DNA from: Candidatus Latescibacterota bacterium
Lineage (GTDB): Bacteria; Krumholzibacteriota; Krumholzibacteriia; WVZY01; JAKEHA01
DNA length: 64,000 nt
Reading direction: 5' to 3'
NCBI GenBank assembly: GCA_963707635.1
Contig: OY970173.1
Location: 704,001 to 768,000, forward strand
This document shows, one piece after another, positions 30,818-32,776 of the stretch. Both the position numbers and the translations under genes were made by a program. A model generated the notes under the pieces. The model did no database searches, was not told the origin of the DNA, and saw nothing but the letters and a program-made list of their open reading frames with translations. Every line of letters begins with the position of its first letter. The first letter of the stretch is position 1.

Positions 30818-32776
30818 ATGGACAGCCGGTCGCTCTTTGCCAAGCAGGTTCGCTCGCAGTGCGAAACCCTGTGCGAGCTGCTCGCCTGCTCGGCCGGCCA
30901 TCCCGTCCCCGACACTGTATTGGAACGCTGCAAGGTCAGCATTCGCATGCTGGCGGGCACCATGCTCGTGCTCGACCTGGACGACTGGGAGCGCCTGCTG
31001 CGGGGGCTCGAAGCGCTCCTGACCGTCCACGGAGAACGTCGCATCGCATGGGACGAGCGCGTCGCCCAGCTGATCTTCGAGCTCATCGAGAAGGAAGAAT
31101 TACTCGCGTCCTGTCACGAACGGGACGGCGAGGTCGGCGGCCGCAATTCGGTGCCCAGGCAGGAAGTCGAGGCCCTGATCGCGGAGGTGGAGGCGCTGCG
31201 CCAGGAGTCCGAGCTCGCCCCCACGATTCCGGTGGTCGCGACCCCGGCGCCGGTCGAACGATTCGGCCGGGTTGCCGCCGAGTTCGGAGCCGCGTGCGAG
31301 CGCGTGCTGGCGGCGGTCTCGTCCGAGCCATGGCAATCGCGCTCGGCCGATGCGGCCTTCGTCGAAGAACTGCGCCGCGGCCTCGGCACCATCGAGTTCT
31401 ATGCCCAGGCGTTGGATCGCATCGTCGCTTCCATCGAAGGGAACGTCGTGTCGCCGAAATGCGACCTTGCGCCGCTCGAGACCGCGCTGGGGGATTTCGC
31501 GATGGAGCTTACGCGGGGCACGGGGCGGTCGCTCGCGATCCGGCTGCGCGCCAGTGAGATCGAAATCGAGCCTGGGCTGCTGCCGGCCGCGTACTGGATT
31601 CTCCACGCGATGGTGGCGGACGTGTTCGAGCGCTGCGACGAGCCTTCGATCGAGGTGGGGGTCGACGTGTACGATCGCAACGGCGCCCTTTACTGGCGCG
31701 TGCGAGACAACGGCGAGACCTTCTTCTCCGACTCGCGTCTCGACCACGAAGACCAGCTCGCGTTCTACCCCGGGCTGCGCCACGTGGTGCGCACGCTGCG
31801 CGAGCACCGCGGGACGCTCGCGGTCGAGCCCAACGGCGGGGCCGACGGGCGCTTCGAGTTCACGCTGCCGGCCTCGACCCAGGCGGAAGCGCTGGTGGTG
31901 TGGGAACAGGGCGGCAAGTCCTTCGCGGCGCGCGCGGTCCAGGTTGTCGAGGTGATCTCCTCCCAGACCGAGCTGAGGCGCGAGGACGCGTACGGCGAGT
32001 ACGTCACCATCGAGTCGCGGCGGATCCCGTTGCTCAATCTCGACGCGCTGGTTCCCGACGCGCCGGGCGGGAAGTCCCACCTGGCGGTGGTGGGCCTGCT
32101 GGAAAAGCGCGTCGCGTTCTACGTGCCGGGAGAAGGCGTCTGCAAGGCGGGCGTCATCCTCGGGGACTCGATGCCGACCTGGAAGGGGATTCCGCACGAC
32201 GTGGCCCGCGTCGACGGGCGGCGCGTGCCGTTGATGGACGCCGGCGACATCCTGCGAAGCTACTTGTCGATCACCGGAGCGATCAGCCCGGACGCGTCCC
32301 CGGACGTCACCGACGACGCCATGGAATCGTACCTGATGACGCCCCCGCCGGACGTGAGCGCCCTGGCCGAATCGAAACCGGCGGACCCGATTCCGTCCGC
32401 GCACGACGACGTCGTCGAAGTGCTCGTGATCGAGCAGAGCGAATCGACGCGAACCGCGCTCACGGACATCCTCACGCGCCAGCACGTGCGCGCGTCGTTT
32501 GCGGGCGACGTCGAAGAGGCAATCAGCCTGATTGGGACGCGCCATCCGCGCGTGATCATCAGCGAGTTTCGGATTCCGACCATGGCCGCCAAAAAGATCG
32601 TCGACCGCCTGCGCGCAGAGGGTCGCGACATTCCCGTGCTGGTGACGACGTCGCAGTCGGGCAAGACCGCCGACCTGCTGGTGGAGAAGCTGGGCGCGTC
32701 GGGATACCTGAGCAAGCCGCTCTCGGCGGCGCAGGTCGCGTCGCAGTTGTCGGGCTTCCTGGGCGCCGTGCGCTGA
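30818..32776 (+). CDS. CheA-like pseudokinase (Hpt-like, HATPase-like, CheW-like and REC-like domains)
   Basis: Domain order and hydrophobic pattern of a hybrid CheA; catalytic residues substituted (see findings). Confidence 0.72.
   Translation: MDSRSLFAKQVRSQCETLCELLACSAGHPVPDTVLERCKVSIRMLAGTMLVLDLDDWERLLRGLEALLTVHGERRIAWDERVAQLIFELIEKEELLASCHERDGEVGGRNSVPRQEVEALIAEVEALRQESELAPTIPVVATPAPVERFGRVAAEFGAACERVLAAVSSEPWQSRSADAAFVEELRRGLGTIEFYAQALDRIVASIEGNVVSPKCDLAPLETALGDFAMELTRGTGRSLAIRLRASEIEIEPGLLPAAYWILHAMVADVFERCDEPSIEVGVDVYDRNGALYWRVRDNGETFFSDSRLDHEDQLAFYPGLRHVVRTLREHRGTLAVEPNGGADGRFEFTLPASTQAEALVVWEQGGKSFAARAVQVVEVISSQTELRREDAYGEYVTIESRRIPLLNLDALVPDAPGGKSHLAVVGLLEKRVAFYVPGEGVCKAGVILGDSMPTWKGIPHDVARVDGRRVPLMDAGDILRSYLSITGAISPDASPDVTDDAMESYLMTPPPDVSALAESKPADPIPSAHDDVVEVLVIEQSESTRTALTDILTRQHVRASFAGDVEEAISLIGTRHPRVIISEFRIPTMAAKKIVDRLRAEGRDIPVLVTTSQSGKTADLLVEKLGASGYLSKPLSAAQVASQLSGFLGAVR

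Follow-up and report, generated by a model that had tools for sequence, protein, structure and literature searches.

Within the window (the whole 64,000-nucleotide stretch of DNA that was analysed), an open reading frame at 30818..32776 on the plus strand encodes a CheA-REC hybrid of 652 residues, termed pseudo-CheA here, with the domain order P1-P3-P4-P5-REC and without a P2 domain. The frame begins with an ATG at 30818, is intact up to the stop codon ending at 32776, and has a GC3 of 0.88; the initial annotation had described it as intact and full length, and all of the motifs quoted there are present in the translation. Only 24 bases separate its start from the end of the upstream gene (28988..30793, +), which encodes a degenerate MCP-like protein of 601 residues with two hydrophobic segments, a coiled coil containing an altered MCP hairpin-tip motif (29876-29926, +), and a long acidic linker followed by a conserved C-terminal peptide (30743-30769, +). 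Downstream, on the same strand, lie the genes of an HTH_17 protein of 74 residues (32983..33207), a STAS-GAF-HD-GYP protein (33238..35019) with RD in place of HD at 34576-34581 (RD-GYP below), and a REC-GAF-HD-GYP protein (35038..36612) with an intact HD and a canonical receiver. The gap between the pseudo-CheA and HTH_17 genes measures 206 bases and holds a weak terminator-like hairpin (32879-32897), so that a transcription break ahead of the HTH and HD-GYP genes is possible. An alpha/beta-hydrolase-like gene (25819-26730, +) and a hypothetical gene of no clear Pfam family (26711-27343, -, bounds approximate) are also syntenic with the locus across the class. Elsewhere in the window, positions 46001-50000 have a G+C of 0.56-0.59, compared to about 0.67 in the remainder.

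The relation of pseudo-CheA to CheA is not apparent from single-sequence searches of Pfam, NCBIfam and the PDB, which matched Response_reg/REC only, and a family profile containing the REC likewise returned only REC matches. An AlphaFold model was built from 53 homologues (pLDDT 84), and with this full model the Foldseek ranks 1-8 were CheA P3-P5 chains (E 7e-15 to 8e-10). Residues 1-135, folded separately (pLDDT 95.5), retrieved CheA P1 at ranks 1-7 with TM scores of 0.68-0.78 and rmsd values of 2.5-3.2 Å, at weak E values of 0.01-0.09. Similarly, HHalign of the family against 16 canonical CheAs from related genomes gave 92% for P1 and 99% for P3-P5, compared to 2.9% and 0.2% in the reversed controls; the REC-free family profile reached CheA structures in the PDB at E 5e-12; and ESM Atlas queried with residues 1-490 returned CheA clusters. 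Rank 13 of that last search was an unnamed 533-residue cluster, commonest in Ca. Eiseniibacteriota and resembling residues 1-490, which may be the same or a sister family. Single orthologs match Hpt, HATPase_c and CheW in Pfam, some of them above the cut-off; P0117 and P0112 pass that of Hpt, and the P5 of orthologs passes that of CheW.

From these comparisons, P1 is a five-helix, Hpt-like domain (30818..31216, +; residues 1-133); P3 is a helical hairpin with a linker (31265..31513, +; residues 150-232), placed by model secondary structure and HHalign; P4 is HATPase-like (31514..31873, +; residues 233-352); and P5 is CheW-like (31874..32272, +; residues 353-485), with a conserved G-x-x-E-K-R hairpin. 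The pseudo-receiver (32411..32761, +; residues 532-648) matches PF00072 at 1.5e-13, and a comparison of the REC part alone with DivK gave a VIA Z of 17.5. All four CheA core domains and the REC are thus recovered by structure and profile searches, which substantiates the CheA likeness and the retained CheW-like segment proposed initially. With P1, P3, P4 and P5 in this order, the protein is structurally a member of the CheA family, and its architecture is compatible with CheAs of the ACF or Tfp class.

The catalytic residues were followed through a family alignment of 139 rows, near-duplicates included, from which P0296 was left out as an unrelated hybrid kinase. The HHalign alignment puts Arg43 (codon 30944-30946) on the phospho-His site, in agreement with the replacement read initially; in the family this site is Arg in 105 rows, Lys in 14, His in 5, another residue in 13 and a gap in 2, and in one subclade it varies between T, S, N and G. 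At the N-box, which together with the G boxes makes up the ATP-site motifs of CheA, the lost Asn corresponds to Asp268 (31619), and the replacement is near-invariant (D in 138 rows, G in 1, N in 0 of 139). The same Asn-to-Asp change is reportedly that of the kinase-negative EnvZ N347D (cited in PMC3868531 and PMC2688746). The G1 box is partly kept, as had been stated, by Asp297 (31706) and Gly299; Asp297 is present in 134/139 rows, the last Gly of the box is missing in all but 2, and the box is lost in the most distant members. The G2 pattern, initially reported as absent, occurs in none of the 139 rows. Moreover, the segment running from the F box through G2 comprises 6 residues in pseudo-CheA and 22 in canonical CheAs (the 9 that were readable by pattern), which points to a deletion of the ATP lid and G2; Gly319 may be the last Gly of G2.

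The receiver is present in 117 of the 139 rows and missing in 22, so that it is not essential to pseudo-CheA. In the window protein, Glu583 (32564), possibly phosphomimetic, occupies the phospho-Asp site, E539-Q540 takes the place of the acidic pair, and K633-P634 is kept, all as first described; T611 is kept too. Among the REC-bearing rows, site 583 is Glu in 86 and Asp in 31, Asp is combined with the Lys in 5, and the full canonical set (acidic pair, Asp, Thr/Ser and Lys) is found in 1/117, which is not the window protein. Pseudo-CheA therefore occurs in three forms: with a Glu-bearing REC, with an Asp-bearing REC that mostly lacks the Lys or the acidic pair, and without a REC. The initial wording that all phosphorelay residues are replaced is a slight overstatement, since Asp297 and Gly299 of G1 and the Thr and Lys of the REC remain. 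Orthologs do not keep the catalytic set either: the N-box Asn and G2 are found in 0/139 rows, the His in 5/137 covered rows, and His and Asn together in none. Neither of the two outcomes named initially as refuting the observation was seen.

An active CheA has a phospho-His, N, G1, F and G2 boxes and an ATP lid, a set that pseudo-CheA lacks. Because the N-box Asn is replaced by Asp, the lid and G2 are deleted and the phosphosites are altered, we strongly infer that kinase activity has been lost. It is very improbable that pseudo-CheA is instead still active in a non-canonical way, as a kinase or relay working through a different residue or through complementation in trans in the manner of R. 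sphaeroides CheA3/CheA4. His43 in five orthologs, the five receivers with both Asp and Lys, and the canonical CheA encoded elsewhere in many genomes of other families would fit such an activity, but the genome analysed has neither a canonical CheA nor an Hpt. In addition, the five His43 rows form two small clades nested among Arg rows (FastTree) and retain the dead P4, and are therefore probably reversions. His310 was considered as an alternative phospho-site and rejected, as it is not conserved in distant clades. On the other hand, the lidless P4 might bind adenine or another nucleotide via Asp268, Arg272, Asp297 and Gly299 and change shape without catalysis. The near-invariance of Asp268 and Asp297 and the strong conservation of P4 would suit a nucleotide sensor of this kind; the deleted lid and G2, the EnvZ-like change at the N-box, and the loss of G1 in the most distant members stand against it and make it quite unlikely.

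The pattern of substitution was evaluated by dN/dS (Nei-Gojobori). The eight least-saturated ortholog pairs gave 0.11-0.15, and the window gene compared with 10 same-genus orthologs gave 0.22-0.30, with dS partly saturated; neighbouring genes, compared with one relative, lie in a similar range (0.11-0.40). In 89 rows of its own order, at least 95% conservation is seen in 21 of 120 columns of P4 and 23 of 117 of the REC, the REC being the most conserved domain and P3 the least. With the REC-free profile, strong matches (E 6e-45 or better) were found in 80/151 sampled genomes, namely the genome analysed and 79/79 sampled genomes of seven families; the named relatives that carry pseudo-CheA are Ca. 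Krumholzibacteriia and Latescibacterota. An eighth family gave strong matches in 0/10 genomes, and a ninth gave weak matches in 16/61, of which 3 are syntenic divergent members and the other 13 cover only the end of P4 and P5, as expected of canonical CheAs. No intact ancestor was found at the same locus, where the 25 full-length syntenic genes examined are all degenerate.

These values sustain the initial view of selection rather than decay, and the loss is lineage-wide, not strain-specific. The neutral decay of an unused CheA, for which the stepwise erosion in one distant family (described below) could be cited, is refuted for this lineage by the dN/dS values and the family-wide residues: the frames are open, dN/dS is well under 1 across the order, and the same substitutions recur across seven families. 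Decay is extremely improbable as an explanation. A kinase fold, the loss of catalytic residues and purifying selection together characterise a histidine pseudokinase by sequence, and pseudo-CheA displays all three; it is very probably a functional pseudokinase.

The upstream gene is, judged by its profile, a degenerate MCP. The family profile searched against the PDB had chemoreceptors as its top 5 matches (E 1e-5 to 2e-4), and distant orthologs reach Pfam MCPsignal at values down to 1e-6, below the cut-off. HHalign of the hairpin tip gave 93.7%, to be read beside a reversed control of 56% that reflects the coiled-coil make-up. The C-terminal peptide after the acidic linker is matched strictly in 101/117 sequences, with variants in many others; it is conserved across the class and tandemly doubled in distant families. 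The same peptide is found in the P1-P3 linker of 4/228 pseudo-CheAs (P0079, P0110, P0114 and P0370), and a search of the rest of its own genome found none. It is probably a docking motif. The pseudo-REC as its ligand is disfavoured, as the peptide persists in clades without a REC and at loci that have lost pseudo-CheA. Co-folding the MCP-like coiled coil with residues 150-485 of pseudo-CheA gave a score of 0.00, the fold of the partner being uncertain, and this speaks neither for nor against a contact.

The gene order is well preserved. The MCP-like gene directly upstream and the HTH gene downstream of pseudo-CheA were seen at 14/14 loci, and at 11/11 more distant loci the order pseudo-CheA, HTH, HD-GYP is kept, with the MCP-like gene detected in 8. 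In the orthologs of the RD-GYP gene, 35 have RD, none HD, and 20 no readable motif; the first metal His is missing in all readable ones, which predicts an inactive phosphodiesterase throughout the lineage. The REC-GAF-HD-GYP protein, whose orthologs keep HD in 35/35, is predicted to be an active c-di-GMP phosphodiesterase; its receiver is canonical in the same order and in the REC-less clade, and degenerate in distant clades. The HTH_17 gene occurs once per genome in 147/151 genomes at 69-100% identity, unusually conserved for HTH_17, and its product may be one of the core nucleoid or regulatory proteins of the phylum. As it stays where the module is lost, it is probably an older resident of the locus, and its membership in the module is disfavoured in spite of its synteny.

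Co-loss was followed in 20 further loci, selected by their HTH gene from the two families in which pseudo-CheA is mostly missing. Of these, 9 have the MCP-like gene together with the RD-GYP-type gene, and 11 have neither, nor any other part of the module. In the 9 eroded loci, what is left of pseudo-CheA is a P1-like part plus REC in 4 and a P1-like piece in 2, where the profile match of the remnant was 61% and that of the control 1%; in the other 3, pseudo-CheA was not found. Across these loci (L135-L138, L140, L142, L145, L146 and L148), the MCP-like and RD-GYP genes are kept while pseudo-CheA shrinks stepwise, an erosion seen in one distant family. The RD-GYP gene is thus tied by co-loss more tightly to the MCP-like gene than to pseudo-CheA. 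The loci are kin, however, and may represent only two or three loss events, and in distant families the HD-GYP orthologs could not be told apart from paralogs by searching whole genomes.

The genome analysed consists of one contig of 3.2 Mb and is 96% complete. Pfam searches gave 0 matches to H-kinase_dim (PF02895), MCPsignal (PF00015), CheW (PF01584) and Hpt (PF01627), and likewise 0 to CheR, CheB and flagellin; these canonical models also miss the pseudo-proteins themselves, and family-derived profiles revealed no second pseudo-CheA copy and, with the P5 profile, no second CheW-like ORF. The CheW, CheR and CheB partners of a complete chemosensory system are thus lacking from this 96%-complete genome. 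Canonical CheA (PF02895) was found in 0/11 same-genus, 1/16 same-family and 1/9 other same-order genomes, and MCPsignal in 1/22 same-family genomes, while canonical CheA is present in 33/33 genomes of the main REC-less family. Being absent in some clades and present in others, it indicates that pseudo-CheA is kept both with and without working chemotaxis. Five GGDEF matches and four PilT-family genes over the cut-off, at genome positions 30855, 1602245, 2213071 and 2262242, were also found. Since P2-less CheA-REC proteins are typical of the Tfp and ACF classes in the available text of PMC10782961, pseudo-CheA might serve as a landmark at the pole or membrane for type IV pili or cell polarity, with the HD-GYP neighbours uninvolved, like Streptomyces PsmA, the precedent described in the accessible part of PMC12963549. 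The PilT genes and the absence of flagellin agree with this role, but the locus lacks a pilus gene and shows co-loss with the RD-GYP gene, and we regard the landmark as decidedly improbable.

The preferred reading, to which we give about an even chance, is that pseudo-CheA is a phosphorylation-independent scaffold that, with the MCP-like protein, positions or switches the HD-GYP proteins and hence c-di-GMP turnover. Before the divergence of these families, an ancestral P2-less CheA-REC system, Wsp/Frz-like, would have lost its chemistry. Pseudo-CheA, itself without autokinase activity, would be recruited by the MCP-like protein in the membrane; the conserved P4 and REC surfaces would bind partners; and the output would be the RD-GYP/HD-GYP pair, with type IV pili as a possible target, a link suggested by the co-presence of PilT genes only. 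This scaffold is favoured by the family-wide absence of the catalytic set while P4 and REC hold more invariant columns than the other domains and dN/dS is low, and by the lack of a canonical partner in the genome, the conserved gene order, the co-loss, and the PilT-family and GGDEF matches of the genome. It is weakened by the tighter co-loss of RD-GYP with the MCP-like gene than with pseudo-CheA, by the possible transcription break before the HTH gene, by the dispensable REC and by the few loss events. The c-di-GMP connection is likely, on the strength of synteny and co-loss only. A precedent exists in P. aeruginosa, whose CheA binds the phosphodiesterase Pch and determines where it localises, although the CheA His is needed there, which counts against a phosphate-free analogy (both from the available portion of PMC3861689).

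A different use of the same parts would be as a sensor in the way of DivL, for which the available text of PMC4211667 gives a precedent: P1 with its Arg, or else the core of the pseudo-kinase, would bind a response regulator that some other kinase has phosphorylated, such as the intact REC of the HD-GYP neighbour, and would report or sequester it. The Arg or Lys that occupies the His site in 119/137 covered rows might be favourable to a phospho-group, P1 is what survives longest in eroded loci, and the neighbour's REC is canonical in the same order and in the REC-less clade; yet site 43 varies in one subclade and that REC is itself degenerate in distant clades, which leaves such a sensor unlikely. 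Returning to the scaffold, its broadest form would make the whole pathway one of pseudoenzymes, made up of a pseudo-chemoreceptor that carries its docking peptide on a tether, of pseudo-CheA, and of a pseudo-phosphodiesterase. A signal from the membrane would reach c-di-GMP turnover purely through binding and conformational change, CheW, methylation and phosphate playing no part, and the pathway would have been kept since the class ancestor. This extension is tentative, with roughly one chance in three.

Pseudo-CheA is real, unusual and conserved through much of a class of uncultured bacteria, and is part of a larger degenerate module; beyond the initial annotation, a degenerate chemoreceptor lies upstream and a degenerate HD-GYP protein downstream. 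On sequence grounds, it belongs to the CheA structural family and the histidine pseudokinases, and would be neither an active CheA nor part of a complete chemosensory system. A description of the family was not found in the literature searched (titles and abstract openings, with few subscription papers), and the CheA tables supplementing PMC10782961 could bear on its novelty. Kinase activity is what defines CheA, and the inactive CheA parts in the available text of that survey, the CheA3 kinase domain and the His-less Hpts of ChpA, occur in systems where phosphorylation still takes place. A pair of receptor and CheA without phosphochemistry, in contrast, is kept in 80/151 genomes, including some without any other chemotaxis gene. 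If this holds, the array scaffold or the shape changes of CheA can be a function in themselves, and pseudo-CheA offers a natural inert model for the roles of CheA besides phosphorylation. Routine annotation labels the module genes 'CheY-like' and 'hypothetical', and since it is blind to the module, similar ones may be missed elsewhere.

WspE and FrzE are examples of P2-less CheA-REC hybrid kinases. Compared to such hybrids (ACF/Tfp/F3/F5), pseudo-CheA has the same order P1-P3-P4-P5-REC and an adjoining MCP-like gene, but its phospho-His, N-box Asn, lid, G2 and receiver Asp are altered, and its locus and genome lack CheW, CheR and CheB. According to the available text of PMC10782961, more than half of CheAs lack P2 and about 34% have a REC. 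The same text describes CheA3 of Cereibacter (Rhodobacter) sphaeroides, which, like pseudo-CheA, has a degenerate kinase domain conserved in a family; this domain of CheA3 is unable to autophosphorylate, as is predicted for pseudo-CheA. CheA3 keeps a phosphorylatable Hpt that is fed by CheA4 of the same operon, whereas the Hpt of pseudo-CheA is the only one of its genome, is His-less, and has no active CheA partner. DivL (Caulobacter) and PsmA (Streptomyces) also conserve the kinase fold without the His, and they act by binding, as proposed for pseudo-CheA; in PsmA, according to the accessible part of PMC12963549, the ATP motifs are degenerate as well and the receiver Asp is dispensable. They are, however, DHp-type (class I) kinases rather than CheAs, with neither a CheW-like domain nor a chemoreceptor partner. 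In P. aeruginosa, CheA serves as a platform that localises a c-di-GMP phosphodiesterase, but this CheA is active, requires its His for low c-di-GMP, and is part of flagellar chemotaxis (PMC3861689, available portion). Finally, ChpA contains Hpt folds without a His, as in pseudo-CheA, and these sit in an active kinase together with six His-bearing Hpt domains (available text of PMC10782961).
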